A DNA stretch of 64,000 bases from Naegleria gruberi (taxonomy: Eukaryota). The translations under genes were made by a program, and so were the position numbers. The first letter of the stretch is position 1; every line of letters starts with the position of its first letter. Below the pieces are notes generated by a model. That model was not told the DNA's origin, did no database searches, and saw nothing but the letters and a program-made list of their open reading frames with translations. Positions 2,450-59,465 of the stretch are shown here, piece by piece. The DNA is taken from NCBI GenBank assembly GCA_000004985.1, contig GG738848.1. The stretch is one strand, 5' to 3'.

Positions 2450-5400
2450 TTATTGTCTCTTGTATTTGATGATATATTCAGGATAGCACTGATATCTATC
2501 ATAGACAATCAATTCTCTATATGAATTACTTGTAGTATTTGATTGGCCAATCACACTATCAAAGACTCTTCTATTCTTTCCAACAATTTCTGGAGGTCTT
2601 CTTTGATTGGTCATTCCTTGGGGTGTGAAATAGACTTGTCTTCCCAAAACAACTCTACACAGGAATATAGTATATTCCTTATTAAGGTCTGGAGTGCAAT
2701 ATTGGTCACTCTTTGAACAATACTCAGCAAAATAAACTCCAGCTCCAAATAAACCACCCAAACTTGCAACTCTTTCATCAAATCCATGTTCTGAAATGGT
2801 TGAAACAAATTCAGGTTTTGTTCCGTGCCATAAGTACTTTTCATTCATTCCACTATTCAATCCAACTGTTTTCATCCATTCGTAGGATTTGCTTGTTTTT
2901 GGCAATAGTTCTGTTTGAACTTGGATTGTCTTGATAGGATCTTGATAAGATGTCAAATGATTCATTCTTGATTTGTATGAAGTGAAAAGTGTTGCATTTT
3001 CAATTCTTGAAACACTTGAAACAATTAATTTGGAATAATTCATTTTCACTTGTTGATCTCTACCAGTTCCAAGTGTTGCAGAATTACATGAAACATTGAC
3101 AATATCTTGAATGGTATTTTTCAAATATTTTGTAACATCCACAATGTAAAATCTTTTAGAATAGGATGTGAATGTATTTCTCTTCCAATAACTTGGCAAG
3201 ACAATATTCAATTGTCTAGATTTGGATTCTTCCAATTCCTTTTCCATGTCTTGTAATTTCTTTTCCTTACTTTTCAATCTGCTAATTTGATTTGTAATTT
3301 CTTCTCTTTCCTTAACACTTTGATTGGTGAATTCCTTTGTTTTCTGTTCAAGTTTCTTGATTTCTTGTGTGAGATTGGATTTATCTTGTTTGAGATTGAA
3401 TTTAACTTGATTCAATTGTTTTTCATATTCCTTCAATTGTTTTGATTGATTTGAAATGGATTTGACTTGTTCTTGAACTTTGATTTCATCCAAGAGAGTA
3501 TCCTTCAAAAAGAATTCACAAACAAGAGCATCTGATGCAAATGGTCTGTCATTTGGATCATTAGTCATACATTGTTGAACTAGAGTATTCAATGATGAGT
3601 AAGTATTCAATTCTTGAGCAGTCATACAATTCTTGATGGTTTTTCCAAATGCAAACATATCTGATTTGAATGTTGCTGATTGACCATTCATTAATTCAGG
3701 TGATAGATAGTCATATGTTCCAGAAACAGAAGTTCTAGTGTACAAATTCATTGTTCTACTTTGAACATCCAAACTAACATCAAAATCTCCCAAAATAATT
3801 GGATATAGACCATTGTTACATTCTCCAACAAATATATTCTCAGGTTTGATATCACAATGAATGACACCTCTGGAATGAATATGTTGAATGGCAATTAATA
3901 CTTGTCTCCATGTTCTTTCCCAAAAAAGTACTTCTAATTTGGTGGATTTTCTTTGTTTTTCAAGAAATTCCTTCAAATTACCATTCGAATAATATGGCAT
4001 TACAATATAAACATTGTTGGTGGAATGGCTATTATCATTAGACATGTAAAATCCTTCAATTTCAATAATATTGTTATGTTTCAACTTTTTTGTAATCTTG
4101 AGTTCTTTTTGTAAACTTTCCAATTTTTTGTTATCCTTGATTGAATATTGTTTAATGATATGTTTCTTATCGTTAATATCAGTTCCAATAAACAAGTGAT
4201 GATTTCCATTCCAATCTTGAATTGGCTTAATTTCTTTGAATAAATCGGCTGACATTTCTTCAATATTCATTGTGGATGCAATACTTGATGACAGGATTGA
4301 CTCAACATTGAATCCAATAGTTTTCAATTGGAGGAACTTCAACTTGATTTCATTTGTCTGTTCAATACATTCCTTGAGTACTTTCTTTTTTTCTTGTAAG
4401 GTTGTTTCCTTTTCTTTAATTTCATCCTCAATTTGCATGGATTCAGTCTTGTTTGTAACATGTACTAATTCATCTCTCAATCCATCAATGTCAAGTTTAA
4501 TAATGGTCAATTCTCTTGTTACTCTTGCTTTCTTTCTTTGTAAAGCAGAATATTGTTCTGTCAATTGCTTGTAATCATTCATAATGTTTACAATATTTTG
4601 CAATTGTTCATGTTGTTCAATAATGAATGGAATGGTTTCTTGAATGAGCTTGTTTCCATTATTAAATTGATTTTGATAATCACAATAAATTTGATAAATT
4701 CCAATTTGAACTAGTTCAGGAAGCAAATTTTTAGTATTAGAAATTGCTTTTTGTAATTCCAATTCCTCCTTTGAAAGCATTTCCATTGCAATCTCTAAAT
4801 TATTTGCAATTCCATTCAAATTAACACTTGTGGCATTATTAATGGATGATGCAATATTTTGTAATTGAGTTGAAATATTTTGTAAAACATTTTTGGATTT
4901 TCCTTCATAATTTGAATCTGTAGTTGAACCATTTAAACTTTTAAGTGTTTTTTGAATTTTTTCAATTGTTAATTCCTTATTTAGGTTATCATTAGCATTG
5001 TAATATTGTAATTGATCTTGATTCAAGTAATTTTGAACAAATTCATCAAATATTTGTAATTTTTCATCTAATGCTTGAATATAGCTATTCAATTGAATTA
5101 AATAATTTTCTGAATTAATTCTTTCTACTATATTTGTAATATTTAACATGTCATTATTAATTAAAGCCACATGTTCAACATTTTCAATATCACACTTATT
5201 ATTCATCAATCTATCATTAATAGTTGAACAACATTCGGATAAAACTCCATTAATTTTCGAATAAACTTGTTGTAGCTCAGTATCAAATGATAATTGATCT
5301 GAAAGTGGAATTACCGAATTCAATTGAGAAGTTACTTGTTTTCTATATTGAGAAACTTTCTCATTCAATGAACACAACTCTGTGAAAACTTGAAATACTG

Positions 5401-6571
5401 AAAGGAAAGTTTGTTTCTTTTCCTTTTCAATTCTTTCCTGTTCAAGTCTTTCGTTTTCAATTCTTTCTTGTTCGAATCTTATTTGATCAGCACGTTCCTT
5501 TTCAAGTCTCTTCTTTTCCAACATTTCTTTTGTAATTCTTTCCTTTTCAATTCTTTCCTTTTCGAGTTTGTCGACTTCTTGTTTAATTATGGAAATTGAT
5601 TTTCCATTAATTTTTAAATTGTTATCAACAACGATATTTGGGGAAGCAAGTAGCAATTTGACAATTTCTAAATTTCCTTTTTGGCAAGCAATAAACAAAG
5701 GAGTGAACTATATATGGTAATATAACTAAATTAATAAATTAAATTTACTTACATTCTAATAAAAATTAGTAAAAAATTTAAATAATAATTGATTGCTTAC
5801 ATTCTATAATGATACATTGAGTATTGAAATATTTCAAATAAATTTTTACTTACATACTAAAATTAATTAATTAAAAAAAATTAATAAAAAATTTTTACTT
5901 ACTCGCTATTTAAATTTTAAATAAAATTAAAAAATAATTAAATACTCACATCCTAATAAACAATATTAAAAAATCAATTAAATTTTACTTACAAACTAAA
6001 TAATATTAACATGTAAATAATAAAATATTATTACTTACAAACTATTATTTTAAAAATTATAAATTTTAAAAATTAAAGCACTTACTCTCTAATAATTATT
6101 TAATACATTTAAAATTAAGTATATTAAGTAATACCTACTTCCTATATAAATATTAAATAAAAAATCGACCATGTAAAATACTTACATACTAAAAATGGAA
6201 TTAAATAAAAAAATAAAATTTTTAACTTACAGTCTATTAAAAATTAAATAAACATTTAAATATAAAACACTCACACCCTACCATCATTAATATATCCAAT
6301 ACATTCACTTCATAACTACTTACACACTAAAAATGTCAACTGTCAACACAATAAATCAAATACTCACACCCTTGTTCACATTAATTTCTGCATAATTCAA
6401 CAATAATTTAACAATTTCCACGCGTCCATTTTCACAAGCATTATACAACATTGTCTTTCCTATTTTTCCATTAGAATATTCATTGATATCTGCTTTTTTA
6501 AACCATTGTTTAAATTCCTTGACATTTCCTGTGGAGGCAGCATCAAGTGCGTTCTCAAAGTTTTTGGACAT
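2450..6571 (-). CDS. Ankyrin-repeat / coiled-coil / protein-kinase-like / tankyrase-like PARP catalytic domain protein. Exons 6571..6368 and 5707..2450, about 1153 aa.
   Basis: Exon 1 reads MSKNF...VEIVKLLLNYAEINVNKG. Exon 2 reads FTPLFIACQKGNLEIVKLLL..., and the junction completes a 33-aa ankyrin repeat. The kinase region has HCDIKPEN, DFD and SPE motifs but a degenerate glycine loop. The C-terminus is WHGTKPEF..GFDERVASLGGLFGAGVYFAEYCSKSDQYC...YRELIVYD...YPEYIIKYK, a PARP fold closest to tankyrase with the catalytic Glu retained. Confidence 0.75.
5708..6367 (-). repeat. Intronic tandem array of 13 units, each about 47 nt (43–54). On the minus strand every unit is AT-rich spacer, then TAG, three nucleotides, then GTAAGT or GTGAGT. 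This is a chain of mini-introns separated by 3-nt microexon-like triplets.
   Basis: Read directly on the plus strand as ACTTAC/ACTCAC + NNN + CTA at 5747, 5798, 5847, 5896, 5944, 5988, 6033, 6081, 6135, 6180, 6227, 6270 and 6319. The true exon-1 donor at 6363 has the same form. All 13 have exactly 3 nt between AG and GT. Confidence 0.8.
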
Positions 6572-16113: not shown

Positions 16114-16225
16114 CATCACTGAATACAGCCTGAGAACATATTCCAAAATCTCAATTTCATTGCTTTTAAATTTGACATGATTGTCCTCTTATTCCTTCTA
16201 TTTTCGTGCAGAAAAGGGCAAAAGT

Positions 16226-16298
16226 TGGGGTCTGTGAGGATCGAACTCACGACCTTAGGATTATGAGACCTACGCGCTACCGACTGCGCCAAGACCCC
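16226..16298 (-). tRNA. tRNA-Met (elongator, anticodon CAU).
   Basis: Cloverleaf GGGGTCT..AGACCCC, anticodon loop CTCATAA, T-loop TTCGATC, 73 nt. Confidence 0.85.
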
Positions 16299-16447
16299 GA
16301 CACATTATATACCTATTACAGTTTCTTCATTAACCTTAACTGAGTTCCTAGGTTTACCTAATAGGAACAGTTTTATGAATATTGACAATTAATGTATGAA
16401 TTGGGTTGATATTTCAATAATGTGATATGATTTATAATAAACTTTTG

Positions 16448-19381: not shown

Positions 19382-19540
19382 GATGGCTCTTGTTAAAAAT
19401 AAATAGTAAAAGAATACATTCCTTTATTAAGTTTACAGTAGAGGTTCATGATTGAAATATCACAAGTACACCGTTGTTGTTTCAAGGTTAATTTCGATAT
19501 TAAGGTTAATGGAGAAACTGGAAAAGGTATATAATGTGTC

Positions 19541-19613
19541 GGGGTCTTGGCGCAGTCGGTAGCGCGTAGGTCTCATAATCCTAAGGTCGTGAGTTCGATC
19601 CTCACAGACCCCA
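19541..19613 (+). tRNA. tRNA-Met (elongator, CAU), inverted copy of the gene at 16226..16298.
   Basis: Same sequence as the 16226 gene. About 45 bp of 5' flank is also conserved in inverted orientation. Confidence 0.85.
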
Positions 19614-19937
19614 TCTTTTTTGCATCCTTTAATTTCCAACAATGAGTGGACAATAAGTCCATAATTACACAACTTTCAGGATAATCCTTAAAACATCAAC
19701 TTCAATCAGTGAAATATGTTAATAACCCTTAGGTCAACCTTGATGTATTTCTAAAACTGTCACTTCACTTTAGCATAGTACTTTTTAATGTATTTTGCGT
19801 TAAAATGAGGCGCAAGTGCAGATAGGAACACTATCTCAATCCCTCTTTCAACTCTTCTGCAAAATGAAATCTTGGGTTTAGTGATTTTCCAAAAACAAAT
19901 AGACGGATATGTCAGAAATTTGTTATTAATAATGTTA

Positions 19938-20009: not shown

Positions 20010-20102
20010 TTATCTTTTGTTTTAAAAGAAATCATTAAGGTACAGTTTTGCAAACCTCAGTAATATTTTTAGAACATTTCAATTCCAAAATTGTAAAATG
20101 TC

Positions 20103-20174
20103 TAGCAAATCTAGGTTTCGATCCTAGGACCTATGGGTTATGAGCCCATCGCGCTTCCGCTGCGCCAATTTGCT
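20103..20174 (-). tRNA. Initiator tRNA-Met (CAU).
   Basis: AGCAAAT..ATTTGCT acceptor, GGCGCAGCGGAAGCGC D-arm, GGGCTCATAACCC anticodon arm, and the initiator-type T-loop GATCGAAACC. Confidence 0.85.
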
Positions 20175-20332
20175 TTGCATTTCTTTTCTTAAAGTTTTTA
20201 TTCTAATTGATATTGGCCAAGTGATGAAAGTGAATTGAGGCAACATTAGCTTTTCACTTTGCAAAGATAAAATTTATTCAAGATTGGAAGAGAAATTTGT
20301 GGAATTATTCTATGAAGGAATTACAGTATTAT

Positions 20333-20971
20333 TTATTGTTGTCCTGAAACAGCTTTCCATGAAGGTCTTGATGAAATCTTTTCCCACCAAGCTTTAACAA
20401 GTGGACGATCCAACAATAAATTACCCAATCCAATAGCGAACAACAAGTTTCCATATGGTAAGTGATACAAATCGGCTAAGGTGAATTGATTTCCACCAAT
20501 GAATTCTTGTTTAGCCAACACTTTTTCATAGGCATCCAAATTGAGTGCTAACTTTTCACTCAATTGTTTGACACGAGCTTCATCAGCAGCTCCATATCCC
20601 ATCATTCCCTTAAATAACTTTTCGAAAACTAAACCAGAAGCATTTGAATCAAAGTAAGCAGTTTCAATGGAAGCACCTTGTTCGAATAGACCCAAAGCTT
20701 TGAGCTCAGTTGGAATGAGTTCAGTTCCTTGGCTCTTATGTTTGGCTTCCAAGTAACGACAGATAGCACGAGATTCATAAATCAAGAACCCATCATCTTC
20801 CAAGACTGGAATGACACCAAATGGATGCTTTTCCAAGTAGGATGGTGACTTGTGTTCTCCCTTCATTAAATCAACAGGAACAAGTTCATATTCTAAACCT
20901 TTCTCCTTGATTGTGGTCAAAACACGTTGAACGCAAGTTGATTGAGCAGCACCATAAATTTTGTAGACCAT
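20333..20971 (-). CDS. Glutathione S-transferase (Ser-type, phi/theta-like), copy A.
   Basis: MVYKIYGAAQSTCVQRVLTTIKEKGLEYELVPVDL...HPFGVIPVLEDDGFLIYESRAICRYL, a thioredoxin-like GST N-domain. ATG lies in an acaaaATGg context. Confidence 0.8.
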   Translation of the reverse strand: MVYKIYGAAQSTCVQRVLTTIKEKGLEYELVPVDLMKGEHKSPSYLEKHPFGVIPVLEDDGFLIYESRAICRYLEAKHKSQGTELIPTELKALGLFEQGASIETAYFDSNASGLVFEKLFKGMMGYGAADEARVKQLSEKLALNLDAYEKVLAKQEFIGGNQFTLADLYHLPYGNLLFAIGLGNLLLDRPLVKAWWEKISSRPSWKAVSGQQ

Positions 20972-21307
20972 TTTGTTATTTGTTATTTGTAATAATACAG
21001 TAAAGTTGTTTTTTTGTGATTGAAAATGCATAATCATTAGTGTGAATGCCATTTATGGTGGATTCTGTATCCGAAACCAAAGCGCTGTCGTGAGCACTAA
21101 TTATTGATCTGTGGAATTTGCGCAAGAAATGAGTGCCATTTCATCCTCTTGGATACTTCAAAATCATGTGAGAGAATGATATTTGTACAATTTTAAATAT
21201 TAAGAATACGAATCAACGGATTGAGTAATAGCATACACCCATTTCCTTAAATTCTAAAACATGTACTGGAATAAATGATTTATCTTACTTATTTCAAAGC
21301 AGTTGAT

Positions 21308-21425
21308 GGCTACGGCCATATCACGATGAATGCACCTCATCCCGTCCGATTTGAGAAGTTAAGCATCGTCGAGCCACATCAGTACTGAGGTTGGAGACAA
21401 CTTGGGAACCTGTGGTGCTGTAGTC
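21308..21425 (+). rRNA. 5S rRNA gene, intact.
   Basis: GGCTACGGCCATATCACG...CATCCCGTCCGATTTGAGAAGTTAAGC...GGTTGGAGACAACTTGGGAACCTGTGGTGCTGTAGTC followed by a T-run terminator. Helix I pairing was checked. Confidence 0.85.
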
Positions 21426-21707
21426 TTTTGTCACTTATTTGTTTTATTCATTAGTTTAAAGTTGCCACCTTAATTGAAAGTCTAGTTTGCTTCTCACATT
21501 CTTTCCAATATTCCAAACACCTTCTTTGGATTCAATCATTGACTGAACTGCTCCATCATAAAAATGATTTATTAAGATTCGCTACATGTTCAATATCAAT
21601 AGTTGAACAAGGCATTAAAATTTATTAAAATACCACAAACATTTTGTCATTCTTCACTCCACAACCAACAGAATAAATACTGTGTGCCTTATGCAATTCT
21701 CAAAACC

Positions 21708-21896
21708 ATCTTTCTCGGCCAATTGGCTTTGATCGAGTGTAGTATCTGTTCTTTTCAGTTTAATAGCTGAAAGCAGCTCACGGGTTGCATCTACTATTAA
21801 CTCAATTTTTTGTAGGGATCAGGGTTTGAGCTTAATTGCTCACTTTGATTTGGTTTCAATCAGACATTGCACAAACCGTCAGATTAGGAGCCACCT
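21708..21896 (+). ncRNA. U2 spliceosomal snRNA.
   Basis: ATCTTTCTCGGCCAATTGGCTTTGATCGAGTGTAGTATCTGTTCTTTTCAGTTTAATAGCTGA..., the canonical U2 5' end. It has the GUAGUA branch-site-recognition element and an Sm site AATTTTTTG. Confidence 0.85.
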
Positions 21897-22290
21897 AACT
21901 CTTTTAATTAATTGAAAATCATTGTTCAAATACAATCTCAATGAGTTTTTCCGAGCATGTATGATGATAAATTAAACATGATGAGAGAGACTCACAACAG
22001 TCCATCAACCACTTAAGCAAGATGAAGTTTAGGAAGTCCAACACAAGAAATTGATGTTTTGGGTTTGTGTGAAAATAAACTACTATATATTATAGTTGTA
22101 AATTGCCAAGCCGTTTCAGCAATTTTTTAAAAAGGTAACACGTGGTTCTCATCATCATTTTTAATATTCTTGATGAATACTCAATATTATTGGACAATCT
22201 TTTCAGAATAGATAATAGACATGTTGGAGAGGATAATGATATAAAATAAGTAACATGGCATAAAAAGTTGAGTGATAAAGAAGCAAAAGT

Positions 22291-23677: not shown

Positions 23678-25405
23678 TTAATAATTAAAATCAAAGGGAG
23701 GAACATCATCAAGATGATGACGAGGATTATCAGTCGAACAACAAATAATAGGAAGGAGAGCTTCAAATAGGCTTTCATCTTCATGCATCCAAGCTGGTAA
23801 TAACATTGAATCATCAACCTTCCTATCTTCCTCTTCTTCATCAAATAGGGAAATATTATGGTGTTTCAAGTAATCTTCAAACACCTGACAATCATCCAAA
23901 TGTTCATAAGGTTCCCAAGTCTCATCTGGATAACCCAACCATTGAATATGATACAAGTAGGATTTTCTAGATTGATCACTTCCCTTGAATACTTTTTCAT
24001 GGTCAACAATAACCTTGATGGTATATTCCTCTGTGGTTGGTTTGGGTTCATACTGTTGATATTCCTCTTCATCACTTTCCTCTTGTTTATCATCACCACA
24101 TTCATTGAAGAGGGCATAATTTCTCTTGATAGGTTTTCTCTTCTCTGTGAGGATTAAACTCTGGTCAAGGCAATCATCACCAAGCTTCTTCTTCATTCTC
24201 TGGCTTTGATAGTAGGGATGGTCAGCTTTGAAAGCATTGAGTGCTTGCCTTTGTCCCATTCCACAATAGACCTTGCTGTGTTTGAAATGTGAACGATGAG
24301 CAAAAAAGATGAAGGAAAATCTCTTCTGTTCATAATCATTGGAAGGCTCTTTGGATGATTGAACTGGGTTGTCTCCATCAGTGGGTTCTTGCTTTGGACA
24401 AGTATTGATAAGAGTTGGAGTATTATCATCAGCTTGAGGATTATTCAATGTTGGAGAAGAATTTTCACAAATTTTCACATCATCAACTTCAGTTTGGGAA
24501 GAATTGGCAAGTGGAAAACTTTGAGGACGAGTTGGAGAAACAGCATGACGATACTTGTTAGCTCTCAGCAAGACAACATCACCTGCTTGAATGTGGACAA
24601 GTGTTTTTGGAGTATGTTCATTCACTCGAATCAATTGAAGGGATCCACCTCCAAATTTTCCCATATAGAACATGGCAGAGATTCCCATATCATTTCTGTC
24701 ACGATGATTTGTCTTTGGACGATTGACTTTATCTGTAGACTTATATGAGCCTTGGAATTTCTCCTTGACTGATTCATTTCTTGTTGGAATCATGTTGAAA
24801 CATACAACTGGAGTTTGACCTCTTTCTGTCAATTTGGATAATTTAGCAAATAGTTTGGGATTTGCCAATTCCAAAATATGTTGAAAGGTATCATGTAAGA
24901 GAGCTTGTATCTGTTTCACTTTGGTATCAACTAGCTCAAATCGAAAGCTATCAGCACATTTGTATCCCATTGGCATATTCATTGTCCACCATCCAGAAAA
25001 GAAACTTCCCTTATCAATATCCTTTTCAGTAGCTAACCATTCACTCATCTCCCTACAAAGTTGAGTGCATTCTTCCAATAGACTTGGAGGCAATACTGAT
25101 TTCAACAAGGCCATTTCAACCATTCCTTCTTTTGTGACGATAATAGTATTTGAGGAGATTTCTTTTGGAATGGTATCATTTACACCATATACTGATAGAA
25201 TGGGTTCATTGGATTGAATATTATTTCCTTTAAGGAATTCCCATTCTTTTATCATTTTGTAAACTCTAGTTTTACCAGATTCATCTATGCTTTTCTCATT
25301 TTCCCAACACACTCTTGTTAAGGCTTGAGCTTTCAAAAATTGTTTCTTTCGTCTTCTGTGTTTGGGTTTCTTCTTGTCGTGCTGAGATACATGCAGTGGA
25401 CCCAT
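23678..25405 (-). CDS. AlkB-family 2OG-Fe(II) dioxygenase fused to a C-terminal chromodomain.
   Basis: HRDRNDMGISAMFYMGKFGGGSLQL...IQAGDVVLLRANKYRHAVSP...RFSFIFFAHR gives the HxD...H...RxS dioxygenase pattern. The C-terminus has YTIKVIVDHEKVFKGSDQSRKSYLYHIQWLGYPDETWEPYEHLDDCQVFEDYLK, a chromo fold. Confidence 0.65.
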   Translation of the reverse strand: MGPLHVSQHDKKKPKHRRRKKQFLKAQALTRVCWENEKSIDESGKTRVYKMIKEWEFLKGNNIQSNEPILSVYGVNDTIPKEISSNTIIVTKEGMVEMALLKSVLPPSLLEECTQLCREMSEWLATEKDIDKGSFFSGWWTMNMPMGYKCADSFRFELVDTKVKQIQALLHDTFQHILELANPKLFAKLSKLTERGQTPVVCFNMIPTRNESVKEKFQGSYKSTDKVNRPKTNHRDRNDMGISAMFYMGKFGGGSLQLIRVNEHTPKTLVHIQAGDVVLLRANKYRHAVSPTRPQSFPLANSSQTEVDDVKICENSSPTLNNPQADDNTPTLINTCPKQEPTDGDNPVQSSKEPSNDYEQKRFSFIFFAHRSHFKHSKVYCGMGQRQALNAFKADHPYYQSQRMKKKLGDDCLDQSLILTEKRKPIKRNYALFNECGDDKQEESDEEEYQQYEPKPTTEEYTIKVIVDHEKVFKGSDQSRKSYLYHIQWLGYPDETWEPYEHLDDCQVFEDYLKHHNISLFDEEEEDRKVDDSMLLPAWMHEDESLFEALLPIICCSTDNPRHHLDDVPPFDFNY

Positions 25406-31398: not shown

Positions 31399-32517
31399 TT
31401 AATGAATAAAATCAAGAATAATGTCATCTAATCGTCTCATTTGTAAAGCTCCATGTAAATTATGTTTAAAATCATTATTTGGAATTACAAAAAGAGGTAA
31501 ATCAAACCTGTGAGTAATAAAACACTTTCTAGGTGAATTAGCTCCTATGGCTAAACAATTCAGTAATTCCTTCATATCAGAATCATGGGATGTATTCACA
31601 ATATGATATTCATATGTTCTATTTGGATAGCTGTTGTCTTGGTTATTTATCATTACTTTCAATGTCTCTGTAATGAGAGAATTGATGATTAGTGCACAGT
31701 CTTTCTTTAATCTATTCAATTCTTTACGAATATTTGGATCTGTATTTCCTTGATATTTAACACCCAATTTTATCCTTTCCTGGAAAACATCCGGGTGAGT
31801 AAATATCAAAATTATTCTATAGCAAGTAAATTTAGAAAGTCTTTTACATTCATTGAAATAGGTATTCAAATATTGAAGATTATCATAATCAGATAACGAA
31901 AATGAGACTGCAACCACATCAGCCCAAGTGTCACAAGAAAAACAATTTGCAAAAAGCTCAAAACTCAATTGATTGGTTTTGTAAGGATAATTGCTAGTTT
32001 TTGTGGAATAAGCACATGTAAGATATCTTTGATTTGTGAACACAGGCTCAAAAAAACAAGTTCTCTTCACATTAAATTGACTTCCTCTTTCCAGATATGA
32101 ACACAATGTTGGTAATACCAAATATGGATCCAATTTAAATCGATTTTCAAAATATTCCTCTCTAAAATTTGGTTGACTCCACAATTCCACTAATAATTCC
32201 GCCAAACTCATTCTCTCCATTTGATGTTCATGAAAATAATGAGGCAAATGTTTGCACAAATGATCACAAATAAATAATAATTCTTCACGTAACAATTTTT
32301 CATCCGATTGTTTGTATTTGTTGTAGGTTTCGTTGGTAGTAGTGCAAAATTCTGATAGATCTCCTCGATGAAGAGACATTATTTGATCAGCCAAGCCTTG
32401 AAAAATCACAACAGAAGGTCCTCCTGCAATTAGAAAATATTGGTGGTGGTATTCATTTGTGTTGGAGTGATGTCCTGAATTGATATGCTTGGTTGGAAGA
32501 GAATTGTTTGCACCCAT
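31399..32517 (-). CDS. Divergent G-protein alpha-subunit-like protein with an N-myristoylation motif and degenerate GTP-binding motifs.
   Basis: Start is MGANNS from tacaaaaaaATGG. DVVAVSFSLSDYDNLQYL matches Gα (A)IIFCVALSDYDQVL, and RIILIFTHPDVFQERI matches SIILFLNKKDLFEEKI. The P-loop is reduced to LIAGGPSVV. Confidence 0.55.
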   Translation of the reverse strand: MGANNSLPTKHINSGHHSNTNEYHHQYFLIAGGPSVVIFQGLADQIMSLHRGDLSEFCTTTNETYNKYKQSDEKLLREELLFICDHLCKHLPHYFHEHQMERMSLAELLVELWSQPNFREEYFENRFKLDPYLVLPTLCSYLERGSQFNVKRTCFFEPVFTNQRYLTCAYSTKTSNYPYKTNQLSFELFANCFSCDTWADVVAVSFSLSDYDNLQYLNTYFNECKRLSKFTCYRIILIFTHPDVFQERIKLGVKYQGNTDPNIRKELNRLKKDCALIINSLITETLKVMINNQDNSYPNRTYEYHIVNTSHDSDMKELLNCLAIGANSPRKCFITHRFDLPLFVIPNNDFKHNLHGALQMRRLDDIILDFIH

Positions 32518-33480
32518 TTTTTTGTAATAGATCAGCAATTACAACAGCACTACACATCATACCACCAAACAGCAATGCAAAGGTACTCACTGACAGTGAA
32601 ATAGCGGTCAAAATAATTAACAACACAAATTACAAAGGTCAATTTAAGCAAATCAAAGATGAAATTACCAACCTCATCAGCACTAAAAAACTTCAAGCAT
32701 CCATCGAATGGACAAAAGCTCATACAGGAATAACAGATGGAAATAACTACGCTGATAAGAAAGCCAAACAAGCCTCACGAATAGGACATCGAATTGCACC
32801 CCAACATCTACTAACTCAAGGGCAATTAATTATCACCAATTCGAAAAAAGTTTGGAAAAGTAGAATCAAAGGAGTACTTAGGGAAAAGCTCTACGATCAA
32901 GGAACATCCGAACTCATCAACAGAACAAATCTCAATTACCTCAAAGAACATACCACCCCAACTCACAAATACTCAATCTGGAGGCTCATGATAAATGGAC
33001 ACTTAAGAAGCCTCATAGTAGACAACCCACAATGCCCAACATGTAACAAAAACCTTGACACAGAACACCTCTTCATAGAATGCCCAGAAATGAATTCAGC
33101 AAGAAACTGGATGATTGAAGAAATCAAAAAAAATCAATCTCGAACCAGTACTAAGCACAGAGAGGACAGAAATATTAACACCAAACTCATTCCAACTGAA
33201 TATCTTTGGTATTCTGACAAAACCTATTCAAGGTATTATCAAAGAACAATGGCCCAAGATACAAGGAGGCCTCTCACTTTTTGGAGGAAGAGTACAAAAA
33301 CAATACAACAAAATCTTAAAAATTCAATAAGACGTTCCAAATGGACGAACCCGTCGGGTTCATTCGATTAATAAACGTTTAAATTTTTTTGTAATAGAAA
33401 CTGGAATTTTATGTACTAATAAAATTAAAAAATAAATAGTTAAATATTAAACAAACGCGTCACCACCAAATCATTTGGTG
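32500..33480 (+). mobile_element. 5'-truncated non-LTR (LINE) retrotransposon fragment carrying the ORF2 RNase H tail plus a Cys-rich C-terminal motif and a 3' UTR. It sits tRNA-proximal, as TRE3-like elements do.
   Basis: VLTDSEIAVKIINN...ASIEWTKAHTGITDGNNYADKKAKQAS is the RNase H DxxE...H...D tail. CPTCNKNLDTEHLFIECPEMNSARNWM is the zinc motif. The element ends about 40 bp from the 3' end of the tRNA-Arg on the opposite strand. Confidence 0.7.
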
Positions 33481-33520: not shown

Positions 33521-33594
33521 TACCGACAATGGGGCTCGAACCCACGACCCCAGGATTAGAAGTCCTGTGCTCTATCCAACTGAGCTATGACGGC
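33521..33594 (-). tRNA. tRNA-Arg (UCU). The acceptor stem has one U•U mismatch.
   Basis: GCCGTCATAGCTCAGTTGGATAGAGC..CTTCTAA..GGGTTCGAGCCCCAT..TGTCGGTA. Confidence 0.7.
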
Positions 33595-48887: not shown

Positions 48888-50057
48888 CTATTGATAGGTA
48901 ATCAAATATTCAGGATAGGCTTGCTTATTATCATAGACAATAATTTCCTGTCCTCCCCATCCAGTAACACTATCAAATCCCTGCGGAGCAATCTTAATCG
49001 TCTGCATCATATTCATATTAGCATCATATGAATGACCAACAAGTACTCTCACAATGAACATTCTTCCATTATTACTATTACCAGCATATCCGAGAGAGTA
49101 GGAAGCATTGGGACTAAAGTAAATTCCATTTCCAAATTTCCCACTATTACTCACTCTTGCATCGAAACCTTCCTTGGCAATTAAATCAGCAAATTGTTGT
49201 TGAGTTCCGTGGAAGAGTTGTTTCTCATTGTGGTTGGCTTTCATGTTCTGCTTTTGAAGACTGTACCAATTCCATCGAATGTAATTTTCAATTCGTTCAA
49301 TTTTGAGAATGGTTTTACCTGTGGAGGTTGAGGAAAAGAGCTGAGAACAATGTTGAAACTCTTTGGAGGAGGTGGAAAGTGTTACTATTCGAAAGTGTGG
49401 TTTCATGAGAGGGTTTTTGGAGAGTTTGGGAGGATTTTCCCATTCCTTTGGCCATGAAGAGATGCAATTCACTTGTGTGTTGCTGGTTGAATTGGTTGCC
49501 TTGCTTTCATGTATAAATGAATAGCAATGTGAAATATCTCCAGATAGATACTTTTGACAGGAAGTAGCATCTTGGCATGTATGGAAATAGTGAAGGCAAT
49601 GCTCTTTCTGTTGGAGTTTAGTACACTTTGAATCGTATTTGCATGGATGGACGAATCTGGATCTGTGAACAGAATCAGTAATCATGGAACAGTTTGCTCC
49701 CTTCTTACATGGATGATAATACTTTTCACCATGATCAACATGATCCCTATAGTTTGTTTTGGTACATTTATCCCAATGTTTACAAGGCACCTTGTCTTTT
49801 AATTCATTAACTTTGGTTGAAGTTGATGATTTCGTTGTTTTGCTGCAGCTTGGTGATGAGGAATGGCTGGTTGTTGGTGTTGTACTTGTGGATTGGATTG
49901 TGGATTGTTGTGGTTTGACGTAATTGACAGGAAGAAATTGTGGATTAGCTCCTGTTGTCATGTATCCAACAATTTGTGGCACCGTTCCTTGAGGGATATT
50001 TTGTGGAGGTTGGGATGAAACACTTGGTGTGGGCAATGTTGGATTGTTTTGCTTCAT
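48888..50057 (-). CDS. PARP catalytic-domain protein with three PBZ-type (C2H2 poly-ADP-ribose-binding) zinc fingers and a Pro/Gln/Thr-rich N-terminus.
   Basis: Fingers: CKHWDKCTKTNYRDHVDHGEKYYH, CKKGANCSMITDSVHRSRFVH and CKYDSKCTKLQQKEHCLHYFH. Catalytic region: LFHGTQQQF...GFDARVSNSGKFGNGIYFSP...GQEIIVYDNKQAYPEYLITYQ. Confidence 0.75.
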   Translation of the reverse strand: MKQNNPTLPTPSVSSQPPQNIPQGTVPQIVGYMTTGANPQFLPVNYVKPQQSTIQSTSTTPTTSHSSSPSCSKTTKSSTSTKVNELKDKVPCKHWDKCTKTNYRDHVDHGEKYYHPCKKGANCSMITDSVHRSRFVHPCKYDSKCTKLQQKEHCLHYFHTCQDATSCQKYLSGDISHCYSFIHESKATNSTSNTQVNCISSWPKEWENPPKLSKNPLMKPHFRIVTLSTSSKEFQHCSQLFSSTSTGKTILKIERIENYIRWNWYSLQKQNMKANHNEKQLFHGTQQQFADLIAKEGFDARVSNSGKFGNGIYFSPNASYSLGYAGNSNNGRMFIVRVLVGHSYDANMNMMQTIKIAPQGFDSVTGWGGQEIIVYDNKQAYPEYLITYQ

Positions 50058-50143: not shown

Positions 50144-51310
50144 ATGCATCAGCCAAACAATCCGAATGGCACAAATAATAATAATTGGCAACAGTTTCCG
50201 CAACAGCAAATCTATTTGCATCAGCAACCACAAGGTCAAGTATTTCCGCACCAACAATTACCAATGTATTGTCAACCGTACCAAATTATTCAAATTCCTA
50301 ATGAAATGATTCAACCATCAACACAACAAGTTTCATCTCAACAAACAATGCTACCAAACGTGATGCTCAGTTCCACTTCAACTTGTCCACAAGATTTTCA
50401 CAATCAAGTACCAGAAAGAGAGGATTTTTGCACTGATTGGAGATTATGTTCTGAAACAAAAGATCAGAAACACAGATGCACCAAAAGACATTTATGTACC
50501 ATCAAGAATTGCTCCAAAACTAGTGATAAGGTTCATGTTGGCAGATTCTTGCATTATTGTAAATATGGTGAAAAGTGTCGTCACATAGATGATGATAATC
50601 ATAATCATAACTTTATTCATCCATGCAAGTATAAGGGAGATTGTAAAAAGCTTGGAGACATTATGCACAGAATTTTCTTTACCCATCCAACAATAGCTGA
50701 CAATGGCTTGTATCCAAGATCTTGGGGAAAGGTGTTGGACGATCATTGTAAATGTGTTAAGCTTTCACATAGCTCTTCAGAATTCAAAGAGGTAGAGAAA
50801 ACATTTATTCAAAGAATTAATCACAGCCATCCAACTGCTCAAGTAATCGACATTGAAAGAGTGGAAAATGCCAAGTTATGGAGAGCTTTCTCAATTAAGA
50901 AATCAGAAACCATTCACAAGAATCAAAATATCAAAGCTGAAAATCAAGTGAAAACACTCTACCATGGAGCTGAAGAAACAGCAGTCGATGCCATCACCAA
51001 AACAGGATTTGATTATAGACGATGCCAAGTTGGACATTATGGACATGGAAATTATTTTGCAGTCAATGCTAGTTATAGTCATGGTTATGCCAAGCCATCA
51101 ACTTCTGATGGTAGTAGAAGGATAATTGTTTGTAAGGTAGTTGTTGGAGAATCTCTCAGAGTAGCACAGAAGGATAATACTCTGAGAAGACCTCAGGATA
51201 AGACAACAGGTAAAATGTATGATTCAGTACAGGGAGGACCAACAGGAACTGAATATGTAGTATTCGATAACGAATCTCCATATCCTGGATATATTGTAAT
51301 TTACAAATAA
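50144..51310 (+). CDS. Paralogous PBZ zinc-finger PARP protein, divergently transcribed from the gene at 48888..50057.
   Basis: Fingers: CTKRHLCTIKNCSKTSDKVHVGRFLH, CKYGEKCRHIDDDNHNHNFIH and CKYKGDCKKLGDIMHRIFFTH. Catalytic region: LYHGAEETAV...GHYGHGNYFAVNASYSHGYA...GTEYVVFDNESPYPGYIVIYK. The two start codons are 86 bp apart. Confidence 0.75.
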   Translation: MHQPNNPNGTNNNNWQQFPQQQIYLHQQPQGQVFPHQQLPMYCQPYQIIQIPNEMIQPSTQQVSSQQTMLPNVMLSSTSTCPQDFHNQVPEREDFCTDWRLCSETKDQKHRCTKRHLCTIKNCSKTSDKVHVGRFLHYCKYGEKCRHIDDDNHNHNFIHPCKYKGDCKKLGDIMHRIFFTHPTIADNGLYPRSWGKVLDDHCKCVKLSHSSSEFKEVEKTFIQRINHSHPTAQVIDIERVENAKLWRAFSIKKSETIHKNQNIKAENQVKTLYHGAEETAVDAITKTGFDYRRCQVGHYGHGNYFAVNASYSHGYAKPSTSDGSRRIIVCKVVVGESLRVAQKDNTLRRPQDKTTGKMYDSVQGGPTGTEYVVFDNESPYPGYIVIYK

Positions 51311-51533
51311 TATATACTGTCGTTGATTTTCACACAAACGCAAAACATCAATTTCTTGTCCTCCACTTGCTTAAGTACTTTCAATTAATCGAACAATTTC
51401 AGTGGAACGATTTCAACGAGTCTCTCTCATCATGCTTTTTTAATTTAATTCTCAAGTAGGAATTTTCAAAAACTCAATTTTACTGATTGAGATTGTATTT
51501 GTGCAATGAATTTTCAATTAATTAAAAGAGTTA

Positions 51534-51721
51534 GGCGGCTCCTAATCTGACGGTTTGTGCAATGTCTGATCGAAACCAAATCAAAGTGAGCAATTAAGCT
51601 CAAACCCTGATCCCTACAAAAAATTGAGTTAATAGTAGATGCAACACGTGGGCTGCTTTCAGCTATTAAACTGAAAAGAACAGATACTACACTCGATCAA
51701 AGCCAATTGGCCGAGAAAGAT
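51534..51721 (-). ncRNA. U2 snRNA, copy B (right arm of the inverted repeat).
   Basis: Reverse complement of the 21708..21896 copy, with a few substitutions. Confidence 0.8.
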
Positions 51722-52012
51722 GGTTTTGAGAATTGCATAAGGCACACAGTATTTATTCTGTTTGTTGGGGAGTAAAGAATGACAAAATGTTTGTGGTATT
51801 TTAATAAATTTTAATGCCTTGTTCAACTATTGATATTGAACATGTAGCGAATCTTAATTAATCATTTTTATGATGAGCAGTTCAGTCAATAATTGACTCC
51901 AAAGAAGCTGTTTGGAATATTGGAAAGAATGTGAGAAGCACCAGGTTAGATTGCCAATTAAAGTGGCCAAAATTGATAAGTAAACTTGAACTAGTGCAAA
52001 AAACAAAAAGAC

Positions 52013-52055
52013 TACAGGGATGAGGTGCATTCATCGTGATATGGCCGTAGCCATT
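52013..52055 (-). pseudogene. 5S rRNA pseudogene. It carries an internal deletion of about 75 nt.
   Basis: The reverse complement reads GGCTACGGCCATATCACGATGAATGCACCTCATCCC|TGTAGTC. The middle of the gene is missing relative to the 21308 copy. Confidence 0.75.
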
Positions 52056-52555
52056 CATTAATGTAAACTAAGGTTTTTCAAAATGTTCAAAAATTGCAAG
52101 TTAATTCACTTTAAGAGGATTGTTAGCGATCAACTACTTTGAAATAATTAAGATAAATCATTTATTCCAATACCATTTCCAACACAATGCACCATCTGCA
52201 ATTATTGCCCTCATGGAATCCCTATTTTCAGTTTCGAATCATCAAAATCTCTTTCTCCAGCTCGACGTTATAGAATTTAAGGGAATGGGTGTAAGCTATT
52301 ACTCAATCCGTTGATTCGTATTCTTAATATTTAAAATTGTACAAATATCATTCTCTCACATGATTTTGAAGTTTCCAAGAGGATGAAATGGCACTCATTT
52401 CTTGCGCAAATTCCACAGATCAATAATTAGTGCTCACGACAGCGCTTTGGTTTCGGGTACAGAATCCACCATAAATGGCATTCACACTAACCATTATGCA
52501 TTTTCAATCACAAAAAAACAACTTTACTGTATTATTACAAATAACAAATAACAAA

Positions 52556-53194
52556 ATGGTCTACAAAATTTATGGTGCTGCTCAATCTACTTGCGTTCAA
52601 CGTGTTTTGACAACAATCAAGGAGAAAGGTTTAGAATATGAACTTGTTCCTGTTGATTTAATGAAGGGAGAACACAAGTCACCATCCTACTTGGAAAAGC
52701 ATCCATTTGGTGTCATTCCAGTCTTGGAAGATGATGGTTTCTTGATTTATGAATCTCGTGCTATCTGTCGTTATTTGGAAGCCAAGCATAAGAGCCAAGG
52801 AACTGAACTCATTCCAACAGAGCTCAAAGCTTTGGGTTTATTTGAACAAGGTGCTTCCATTGAAACTGCTTACTTTGATTCAAATGCTTCTGGTTTAGTT
52901 TTCGAAAAGTTATTTAAGGGAATGATGGGATATGGAGCTGCAGATGAAGCTCGTGTCAAACAATTGAGTGAAAAGTTAGCACTCAATTTGGATGCCTATG
53001 AAAAAGTGTTGGCTAAACAAGAATTCATTGGTGGAAATCAATTTACCTTAGCCGATTTGTATCACTTACCATATGGAAACTTGTTGTTCGCTATTGGATT
53101 GGGCAATTTATTGTTGGATCGTCCACTTGTTAAAGCTTGGTGGGAAAAGATTTCAGCAAGACCTTCATGGAAAGCTGTCACAGGACAACAATAA
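52556..53194 (+). CDS. Glutathione S-transferase, copy B. It differs from copy A at 3 amino-acid positions.
   Basis: Same ORF as 20333..20971, on the inverted-repeat arm. Confidence 0.8.
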   Translation: MVYKIYGAAQSTCVQRVLTTIKEKGLEYELVPVDLMKGEHKSPSYLEKHPFGVIPVLEDDGFLIYESRAICRYLEAKHKSQGTELIPTELKALGLFEQGASIETAYFDSNASGLVFEKLFKGMMGYGAADEARVKQLSEKLALNLDAYEKVLAKQEFIGGNQFTLADLYHLPYGNLLFAIGLGNLLLDRPLVKAWWEKISARPSWKAVTGQQ

Positions 53195-53365
53195 ATAATA
53201 CTGTAATTCCTTCATAGAATAAATTCCACAAATGTCTCCAATCTTGAATATCAATTTTTTTATCGTTGCTCAGCAAAGTGAAAAGCTGTATTTAATTTGC
53301 CTCAATTCACTTTCATCACTTGGCCAATAGCAATTAGAATACAAACTTTAAGAAAAGAAATGCAA

Positions 53366-53437
53366 AGCAAATTGGCGCAGCGGAAGCGCGATGGGCTCAT
53401 AACCCATAGGTCCTAGGATCGAAACCTAGATTTGCTA
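53366..53437 (+). tRNA. Initiator tRNA-Met (CAU), copy B.
   Basis: Identical to the 20103..20174 gene. Confidence 0.85.
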
Positions 53438-53532
53438 TTCATTTTACAATTTTGGAATTGAAATGTTCTAAAAATATTACTAAGGTTTGTAAAACATGCA
53501 CCCTTAATGTTTACATCTAAAACTAAAGATAA

Positions 53533-56991: not shown

Positions 56992-57056
56992 TAGCAAATC
57001 TAGGTTTCGATCCTAGGACCTATGAGCCCATCGCGCTTCCGCTGCGCCAATTTGCT
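56992..57056 (-). pseudogene. Initiator tRNA-Met pseudogene: a third copy with a 7-nt deletion that removes the 3' half of the anticodon arm.
   Basis: Intact ...GACCTATGGGTTATGAGCCCATC... versus GACCTATGAGCCCATC here. About 10–15 bp of flank on each side is conserved with the other two copies. Confidence 0.7.
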
Positions 57057-57194
57057 TTGCATTTCTTAGACGCTTCTCTTCCTTAAGAAGTATATGTAGA
57101 AATTTACAATGCCAAAAAATTGTTATGAAAGACTATTACATGTTGTTAAAATTAATGCATTAAAATACTGTTTTGAAACCAATGAAATTCACTA

Positions 57195-57994
57195 CAAATT
57201 TGCACGGGTGGCCGACGCATATCCCTTTTGGCCTGAAATCAGCACTGGGAAAACGTGGGCCAAGTTGACTTCCAGAGAAATACATAGGTACATGATACCA
57301 TATTTTCACAGTATGAGTTATCATGCTAAAAAATAATTTTGGAAAACTTTTATTAATTTTTGTATTGTTTTTGACGAGTTATAAATAAATTCCCATTTTT
57401 AGAATTTTTTAAAATTTATTAATATGGTATTATCATAATGAATACAGAAATTCATCAAATAATATGAATCAATAATATAAATTGTGTATTAATGTACTTA
57501 AATTTCAATTTTCATTAATTCATTCCAACAAATAAAAGACTAGTTATAAAATAATAATAGGTGTCAATTGACAATCGCATTAATAGATCATACTTTATTT
57601 TAAATTGATGATATTTTAACATCACCTTATAGACATGGTATGTATAATATTTTATCATTTTAGTTGGTTGATATCAGATTATCAACAAGATAGAGCTCAA
57701 CAAAACATTTTCTCCAAAATATGTTAGTGTTTTCATAAGTAAATTAAAAAAACTGACGACAAAGGTTGCTAAATAGTGTTTAGAGAATTTTCACGTATAC
57801 GAACATGTATAACGTATTGTAATAAAAAACTAGATAGGGAAAAACATTTAATTCTAAGCTAAAATTTGAAAATACTTTTATTGACCAATATTTTTCATTT
57901 TCTAAAAATAATCAGCTTGTTTGCACAGTAATTTGGGTGGCCTGAAGGAGACTTCTAAAAAAAATCGCTGGAGTCGGCCACCCGTGCAAATTTG
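57195..57994. repeat. Perfect 22-bp inverted repeat pair (CAAATTTGCACGGGTGGCCGAC at 57195–57216 and GTCGGCCACCCGTGCAAATTTG at 57973–57994) bounding a 756-bp AT-rich non-coding segment. It is a candidate MITE-like element or TIR relic.
   Basis: Exact reverse-complement match with a GC-rich core, set in AT-rich DNA. The right copy lies about 60 bp from the 3' end of tRNA-His. The left copy lies about 140 bp from the iMet pseudogene. Confidence 0.5.
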
Positions 57995-58054
57995 AATCAT
58001 TAAGAAACATAAAATTGCATAGAACAGTATTTCTTTCAACAATCCAAAAAGATG

Positions 58055-58125
58055 TAGGAAGACAGGGAATCGAACCCTGATCTTAGGAACCACAATCCCA
58101 TGTTCTACCACTGAACTATCTCCCT
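58055..58125 (-). tRNA. tRNA-His (GUG).
   Basis: AGGGAGATAGTTCAGTGGTAGAAC..TTGTGGT..AGGGTTCGATTCCCTGT..CTTCCTA. The track ORF 57902..58111 overlaps this gene and is spurious. Confidence 0.8.
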
Positions 58126-58628
58126 TCTTGTTGATTTATATAAATTAATAATATTTCAAAATAGATTGTCGGTGAAGATGGTTAATTAAAAAAATAAAAA
58201 TTAATAAAAAAAATATGTAACGGCTAGTTCTTTTGTCCAATCGAACTCTACCAAGCGCTCGAATATTTTTTCACCAGCAAAATAACGCTCAACAAAAATG
58301 AAGAGAATCCCCTGCAGCTTATTTTTAAATTCTTTCGCAGCTGCCAAAAATCCAGTAAGTTCAAGAAGAAAAAAACAAGAAAATTGAAACTCTAAAGATT
58401 GGCTCAATTACATTACCAAGAAATTGTTTGCGTGCGAATAAGAGTTGGAAAAGGGTTGTAGAATTGAATCCGAGAGTGAATTATTCAATTTTACATCATC
58501 ACGAATTTTCATCTATTAATTGTCAAGAAATTAATAAGAAGAATAACATCATCGTTGGCATTAACAATCAACAAAGAGATTTTCATAGCACATCCACATC
58601 GTCATCATCATCAACTAATAACAACAAG

Positions 58629-59465
58629 ATGGAACAATCATCACATAATAGTTTACAAGCTGCCAATAGATTGGTTTGCTTTGTTGAGGGAAATATTGGA
58701 AGTGGTAAGAGTACAACTGTCAAGGAGTTACAACTCTTCAATGATAATAGTGTTTCTGAGCAACAGAAAACAGAAGAGTGGACTCTCCTCAGCAAGTACT
58801 ATGAAGGTGGTATGAAGAATGACCTCACTTTAAATTATGAACTTCAAAAACAAATTGCAAACACTTACTTTAAACATTATTTCAAGTATAGCTTCCTTCC
58901 TCATGGTGGTGTTGGTATTGGTGACTTGTTTGATGACAAGACATTACAATCCATGATGAAAAAACATGAAAAATACTTGAGAATTCACCCAAATACCAAG
59001 TTACCTGAAACCATCTCACTTCCTTCAACTAGCTCACAACCTACTCAACCATCTTCTAGTAATGTATATAATATCTTCTTTGAAGGCATCCTTTCCTCTA
59101 GTGGCGTATTTACTGTCATGGAATATAACAAGGGAATGATTAGAGAAGAAGATTATGTGGACTTGTGTAAAAATTATGATGCCCTTCAAAAAGGAGTAAC
59201 TGGTCATATGGCCTTTTATTTGAAACCAACCAATAATGTTGATGTTTGTTTGGAGAGAATCAAGGTCAGAAGAAGAGAATTCGAGAGTGTAATTGAAAAA
59301 CCATATTTGAAAACAATTGAAGAACATTATGACTGCTTTATGGACAAAGTGGCCACTAAGATTCCAGTATTTGTCATTGACAATTCAACGATGGATGCTA
59401 AGGAAACTGCTGCACTAATTTTGGATGTACTCAGTGCTGTCAGAAAAGATATTAAATACATGTAA
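58629..59465 (+). CDS. Deoxynucleoside kinase family (dCK/dGK/TK2-like) protein.
   Basis: The P-loop VEGNIGSGKST is of dNK type. An ERS-like motif and a LID region follow. The first ATG is at 58629, and the upstream part of the track ORF begins with TTG. Confidence 0.65.
   Translation: MEQSSHNSLQAANRLVCFVEGNIGSGKSTTVKELQLFNDNSVSEQQKTEEWTLLSKYYEGGMKNDLTLNYELQKQIANTYFKHYFKYSFLPHGGVGIGDLFDDKTLQSMMKKHEKYLRIHPNTKLPETISLPSTSSQPTQPSSSNVYNIFFEGILSSSGVFTVMEYNKGMIREEDYVDLCKNYDALQKGVTGHMAFYLKPTNNVDVCLERIKVRRREFESVIEKPYLKTIEEHYDCFMDKVATKIPVFVIDNSTMDAKETAALILDVLSAVRKDIKYM

Follow-up and report, generated by a model that had tools for sequence, protein, structure and literature searches.

An exact 22-bp inverted repeat in a tRNA-rich gap of the Naegleria gruberi genome: probable ends of a small non-autonomous DNA transposon

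Introduction

What is the flawless inverted repeat that brackets a block of AT-rich DNA among the tRNA genes of a gene-dense protist genome? The repeat lies in a 64-kb stretch of Naegleria gruberi DNA, which was analysed as a whole and is called the window throughout. An earlier note on this DNA read the locus as a non-autonomous DNA transposon or MITE, or else as the site of a large hairpin or cruciform. DNA transposons are known from N. gruberi, for example as a full-length MuDRF element (PMC3164196), and so are DIRS-like relics (PMC3266345); our literature search brought up no specific work on MITEs or TIR families of Naegleria.

Here, we ask how far the repeat departs from chance, how its ends and interior are built, where an insertion boundary could lie and whether copies, empty sites or a transposase can be found. 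The anatomy of the locus is on balance best explained by a single non-autonomous cut-and-paste DNA transposon (MITE-like, 792-800 bp) that inserted at an AAATTT site, a reading that we hold to be probable.

Results

The inverted repeat and its chance expectation

An inverted-repeat search recovered the left arm, CAAATTTGCACGGGTGGCCGAC (57195..57216, + strand; 22 nt, 59% GC), and the right arm, GTCGGCCACCCGTGCAAATTTG (57973..57994, - strand), which is the exact reverse complement of the left. The arms pair over 22 of 22 nt without a mismatch and are separated by a spacer of 756 nt. This bears out the perfect 22-nt inverted repeat around a 756-bp AT-rich block that the earlier note had reported at 57195-57216 and 57973-57994.

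The same note had judged a chance origin of the pair unlikely, and our controls agree. When up to three mismatches were allowed, the 22-mer had only two sites in the 64-kb window, namely the two arms, and none of 100 dinucleotide shuffles contained two matches to it. Simulated sequences (n = 60, first-order Markov) were all shorter in their longest perfect inverted repeat within 3 kb, which reached 14-21 nt vs. the 22 nt observed. If pairs of tRNA genes are set aside, no other perfect inverted repeat of 16 nt or longer (within 4 kb) includes bases besides A and T. Composition makes chance less plausible still, since the arms reach 59% GC and the window as a whole about 33%. Thus, the 22-nt TIR is far beyond chance.

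Architecture of the ends

Both ends of the element are GC-rich (51% at 57195-57280 and 47% at 57918-57994), in contrast to a core (57300-57900) of 21.5% GC. The left terminus carries TTTGCAC at 57199 and GGGTGGCC at 57206, and the right terminus carries the same two motifs in inverted form, TTTGCAC at 57984 and GGGTGGCC at 57976. A motif search revealed a third, internal copy of this TIR core (57920..57942, + strand), in which TTTGCAC (57920) and GGGTGGCC (57935) are parted by an 8-nt insert, AGTAATTT; it has the orientation of the left end and is inverted relative to the right terminus. TTTGCAC is present with all three core copies, and of the four GGGTGGCC/GGCCACCC sites that the 64-kb window contains, three fall inside the element.

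The motif search also found a sub-terminal motif, TGGCCTGAA, on the left (57229..57237, + strand) and, in direct orientation, on the right (57938..57946, + strand), where it overlaps the internal TIR-core copy. This 9-mer has two sites in the whole window, one per element end. When the two ends were aligned, their inverted similarity stopped past 22 nt. TIRs with repeated sub-terminal motifs, GC-rich ends and AT-rich filler are the standard ends of cut-and-paste transposons, and the sub-terminal repeats seen here are arranged as is typical of transposase-binding ends.

The same motifs might instead be fixed, non-mobile protein-binding sites, for instance for a boundary, insulator or replication factor near Pol III genes, or the locus might form a hairpin or cruciform. 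The motifs are indeed highly specific to this locus, which lies among Pol III genes, and at the right end the internal and terminal copies produce a local hairpin modestly more stable than those of shuffled sequences (z of about -2.4 to -2.5). At the left end, however, no local structure emerged (z = 0.07), and extruding a cruciform from a stem of 22 bp across 756 nt of spacer is very unfavourable. The motif is also missing next to the window's 11 further tRNA genes, its 5S gene and its two U2 genes. Moreover, identical arms next to unrelated neighbouring sequence have the look of transposon ends and are unusual for regulatory sites. We consider a fixed binding site or structural role unlikely.

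Composition, coding capacity and RNA structure of the interior

The interior (57217..57972) consists of 756 bp of non-coding DNA with 25.7% GC, which resembles the flanking intergenic DNA (24-30% GC); it contains neither an Rfam family nor RNA structure in excess of shuffles. No reading frame runs for more than 72 codons without a stop. A chimeric query that joined all stop-free stretches from the six frames found no protein homologue among 5.8 billion proteins, and the largest overlapping ORF had no match in Pfam, in keeping with the earlier note's view that the small ORFs overlapping the repeats are spurious. Depending on where its boundary is placed, the element measures 792-800 bp, and it has no capacity to code for a transposase.

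Could the locus encode a structured non-coding RNA of some length, or a hairpin precursor of small RNAs, whose ends pair through the 22-nt arms? A 22-bp terminal helix is possible in principle, and the window is dense in non-coding RNA genes. Inside the element, however, an Rfam search (E up to 10) gave noise only, with best scores of 16-21 bits vs. gathering cut-offs of 65-73, and the interior folded no better than its shuffles on either strand (z = +0.6 and -0.3). A core of 21% GC is also atypical for structured RNA. An RNA gene or precursor is in our view very improbable. Together with the 756-nt spacer, the same fold values leave the hairpin or cruciform half of the earlier interpretation weak.

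Genomic setting and neighbouring duplications

The window is gene-dense and eukaryotic, and its introns are short and of the GT..AG type. The element occupies a gap that runs from the end of a cathepsin-B-like gene (~56855) to the start of a deoxynucleoside kinase (dNK) gene (~58629). The dNK protein beside the element is 100% identical to an NCBI Naegleria gruberi entry, and an adjacent EF-hand kinase is 78% identical to its counterpart in N. lovaniensis.

Within this gap, a tRNA-His(GTG) gene (58054-58125, - strand) lies to the right of the element, whose end is 60 bp away from the 3' end of the tRNA. On the other side, 139 bp from the left end, lies a disabled copy of an initiator-type tRNA-Met (56992-57056, - strand), which scores 45.5 bits with the Rfam tRNA model, receives no ARAGORN call and is without 7 nt (AACCCAT) of the anticodon arm. 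It was copied from the initiator-type tRNA-Met genes at 20103-20174 / 53366-53437, along with ~25 nt of 3' and 12 nt of 5' flank. The earlier note had placed the repeat between a tRNA pseudogene and tRNA-His, and these are the two genes in question.

Measuring 1755 bp, the host non-coding gap ranks second in length among the window's 44 (median 307 bp); without the element, about 955 bp would be left. Such an enlarged gap points indirectly towards an insertion. That the element lies close to tRNA genes more likely reflects how little free intergenic space there is.

Several duplications lie elsewhere in the window. An inverted segmental duplication of ~2 kb (20045-22104 / 51298-53495) has arms that lie ~30 kb apart and match at 97-98% identity in blocks of 956, 366 and 199 nt; it includes genes for initiator-type tRNA-Met, tRNA-Pro and U2 snRNA. 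A 5S rRNA gene (21308-21426) is intact in the first arm of this duplication only; its counterpart in the second arm (~52017-52173) is 86-92% similar in pieces and yields no Rfam 5S match at E <= 0.01. Finally, a pair of elongator-type tRNA-Met(CAT) genes (16220-16339 / 19500-19619) forms a 120-nt inverted repeat at 97% identity across 3.2 kb, with a perfect core of 89 nt that reaches past the tRNA.

In a neighbourhood with this history (a tRNA-Met copied with its flanks, a 2-kb inverted segmental duplication), the repeat may be the by-product of a local rearrangement, in which template switching or break repair created an inverted duplication of ~22 nt and a partial third copy that have neither mobility nor function. 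This origin agrees with the single-copy status of the element in all sequence searched (see below) and with an interior that has the GC content of the flanking intergenic DNA (25.7% vs. 24-30%). It does not readily account for the GC-rich end blocks, which span ~70-85 bp and are unlike each other outside the motifs, whereas simple copying would give otherwise, nor for the three core copies and the TGGCCTGAA pair, which amount to an organised end structure. The arms are also flawless, while the window's other duplications have 86-98% identity. A rearrangement by-product thus strikes us as a rather improbable source of the repeat.

Junctions, boundaries and target site

The earlier note had suggested a search for a target-site duplication (TSD) of 2-10 bp flanking 57195 and 57994. 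None is present, as no direct repeat lies outside the arms (ACTA vs. AATC; the left arm is preceded by ..CACTA and the right arm followed by AATCA..). The junctions themselves carry a palindromic octamer, CAAATTTG, at 57195..57202 on the left and again at 57987..57994 on the right, which may be the host target or TSD (8, 6, 4 or 2 bp) or a part of the TIR. Because the outer 8 nt are palindromic, a TSD of 8, 6, 4, 2 or 0 bp would fit, hidden inside the repeat.

These boundary choices differ in the ends that they assign to the element. An 8-bp TSD would leave a 14-bp TIR that starts with CACGGG.. (hAT-like); the TSD could also be 6 bp (AAATTT), 4 bp (AATT) or 2 bp (AT, ISL2EU-like); and with no TSD, an 18-bp TIR starting with TTTGCAC.. 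would have been inserted exactly between AAA and TTT (Spy-like). The AAATTT palindrome is present at both junctions, and a precise AAA|TTT insertion would give an element from 57199 to 57990. All boundary choices predict the same empty site, ..TTCACTACAAATTTGAATCATT...

The internal core copy helps to choose between them. This copy, at 57920, starts with TTTGCAC, which suggests that TTTG belongs to the element and not to the host. From base composition, we estimate the coincidence needed by the 8-bp reading at ~0.006, whereas the 0-2 bp readings need little or none. The shared TTTG and the low coincidence required by a 0-2 bp duplication together favour a boundary at or near 57199/57990. The element most probably starts at or near TTTGCAC, which would imply a duplication of 0-2 bp at an AAA|TTT-type target in preference to an 8-bp duplication of the hAT type.

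Further copies, empty sites and transposase genes

No second copy was found in the 64-kb window, whether we searched with the 22-mer (up to three mismatches), with a 14-mer (up to two mismatches) or with the whole unit (BLASTN, word size 7), and none in ~73 kb of loci from N. lovaniensis, N. fowleri and Willaertia magna. Larger collections, all essentially without N. gruberi, gave chance matches only: the JGI metagenomes had 0 matches to the 22-mer and 96 to a 17-mer, IMG/VR had 70 to a 15-mer and the GTDB genomes had 14 to an 18-mer. We read these as chance because they are single, lie in bacterial contexts of 41-69% GC and show no similarity that extends past the seed.

The dNK loci of N. 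lovaniensis, N. fowleri, Willaertia magna and one further relative offered no empty site; they lack tRNA genes and have other neighbours, and the N. lovaniensis kinase locus is not syntenic with the window. A metagenome contig, L001 (ENA ERZ929261, k127_114650), starts at window position 58139, 14 nt past the 5' end of tRNA-His, and narrowly misses the element. The dNK and kinase proteins of this contig are identical to those of the window and its intergenic DNA is only ~95% identical, with indels (vs. window 58139-58630), so that it must derive from a second N. gruberi-like strain. An exact look-up with two cathepsin exon ORFs, aimed at the left flank in that strain, returned no match. The flanks of the paralogous tRNA-Met genes stop 12-25 nt past the tRNA and do not reach the element.

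Among 29 ORFs of the window compared with Pfam (all 27 of at least 250 aa and two shorter ones), none contained a transposase domain, those of the hAT type (BED / DDE / hATC) included, so any enzyme that moved the element would act in trans from elsewhere. The loci of sister species include a piggyBac-type transposase fragment (PF13843 DDE_Tnp_1_7) in N. fowleri (L005, 10190-11008), two genes downstream of dNK, and a short gene with a weak Phage_integrase match near the kinase of N. lovaniensis (L002, 5745-6191); mobile-element genes thus occur in these neighbourhoods in sister species.

Other ORFs of the window were noted in passing. An RNase H-domain ORF (32493-33371, + strand) ends ~150 bp from a tRNA-Arg gene (33521-33594), and a 575-aa ORF (23678-25405, - strand) has a chromo domain only; both could be cellular genes or retroelement remnants. 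PARP catalytic domains are present in three ORFs (2450-5698, - strand; 48888-50057, - strand; 50144-51310, + strand), one of them fused to a protein kinase domain.

The gene content of the window also bears on whether the repeat could mark an invertible segment, with the two arms as target sites of a recombinase that performs site-specific inversion. Identical inverted sites around a segment are the geometry of an invertase system, and elements with tyrosine recombinases occur in Naegleria (DIRS-like relics, PMC3266345; the weak Phage_integrase match of N. lovaniensis L002). However, there is no recombinase gene in or near the element or among the 29 scanned ORFs of the window, and the segment has no gene or promoter whose orientation could matter. 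We know of no such inversion system in this group, and we regard this explanation as extremely improbable.

Discussion

The MITE reading put forward in the earlier note is the better part of that interpretation and gives the best fit to the anatomy of the locus, namely perfect TIRs, GC-rich ends with motifs, an AT-rich non-coding interior, a long gap and AAATTT at the junctions. We propose that the TIRs (14-22 bp), the three copies of TTTGCAC..GGGTGGCC and the two copies of TGGCCTGAA are putative binding and cleavage sites of a transposase, which would be encoded elsewhere in the genome and act in trans. This enzyme would have cut the element out and reinserted it at a palindromic AT-rich site, ..CTACAAATTTGAATC.., within tRNA-rich intergenic DNA, where an extra 800 bp may be harmless even in a gene-dense genome. 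Such an element would presumably be mobile and belong to a multi-copy set, and AAATTT would be its target.

The element is most probably a small, MITE-like passenger DNA transposon, and transposons of this sort are ordinary. If confirmed, it would add one small family to the sparsely described mobile elements of Naegleria, and it would identify tRNA-rich gaps as places where a gene-dense protist genome tolerates insertions. If it is a transposon, its flawless ends would imply recent activity and, with it, a live transposase somewhere in N. gruberi. A bolder version of the transposon reading holds that the element represents a recently mobile, undescribed Naegleria family with AAA|TTT-precise or 2-bp AT insertion; this would extend Spy- or ISL2EU-like chemistry beyond animals, and, as the terminal bases differ, the transposase lineage might be a distinct one. 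We regard this bolder version as unlikely. The locus would be of wider interest only if a Spy-like mode (TSD-free, AAA|TTT-specific, non-animal) proved true, and would otherwise be a matter of routine repeat annotation.

How does the element compare with known transposons? It shares with MITEs and other non-autonomous class II elements its short and perfect TIRs, the sub-terminal repeats in its GC-rich ends, an interior that is AT-rich and non-coding, and its intergenic site, and its 792-800 bp fall at the upper edge of the MITE range. It differs from MITEs, which have dispersed copies, a readable TSD and an autonomous partner, in that only a single copy is seen here.

Several classes were considered and set aside. 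A Tc1/mariner element is contradicted by the lack of a TA on the right side, a MuDR element by the impossibility of a 9-bp TSD and a Helitron by the lack of TC...CTRR ends. A foldback element or cruciform palindrome needs long arms and a short spacer, in contrast to the 22-nt arms and 756-nt spacer of this locus. The retrotransposons that target tRNA genes in dictyostelids and yeasts find no counterpart here in direct terminal repeats, an A-tail or a coding remnant. For CACTA/CMC elements, the TIR could start with CAC, but no TSD of 2-4 bp fits that boundary. The left flank, just before and overlapping the start of the repeat (57189-57196), reads CACTACAA, which is the canonical CACTA/En-Spm terminus; it has no inverted partner on the right, and we judge it to be a coincidence.

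A hAT-type element is formally possible, with an 8-bp duplication of CAAATTTG and a 14-bp TIR that begins with CA (CACGGGTGGCCGAC), and hAT ends typically carry short sub-terminal repeats that contain GC. This assignment differs in that it needs a perfectly palindromic 8-bp TSD and a chance TTTG match to the internal copy. Transposons of the Ac/hobo/Hermes type prefer the TSD nTnnnnAn, which the octamer CAAATTTG does not fit.

The PHIS superfamily provides the nearest parallels for the 0-2 bp boundaries. Spy elements insert at AAA|TTT without a TSD, share the termini 5'-GGANNNNG-3' and have been reported from invertebrate animals only (PMC4122938). The junctions described here, ..CAAA|TTTGCAC...GTGCAAA|TTTG..., are compatible with such a precise insertion without duplication, but the element would start with TTTGCACG and not with the Spy consensus GGANNNNG. 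Naegleria is not known to have a Spy transposase. ISL2EU elements, also of this superfamily, generate an AT TSD and have TIRs that usually begin with GG (PMC4482050). A 2-bp AT duplication in an AT-rich palindromic context would likewise agree with the junctions under one choice of boundary (CAA[AT]TTGCAC...GTGCAA[AT]TTG), but the TIR would then begin with TTG and not with GG. In a screen of 836 genomes for PHIS transposases, N. gruberi is named, in the parts of that study available to us, only in the supplementary genome list (PMC4482050), which weakly disfavours a PHIS transposase as partner of the element. The presence of AAATTT at both junctions, on the other hand, matches the AT-rich symmetric type of target used by PHIS transposases, and we count this match in favour of a transposon.
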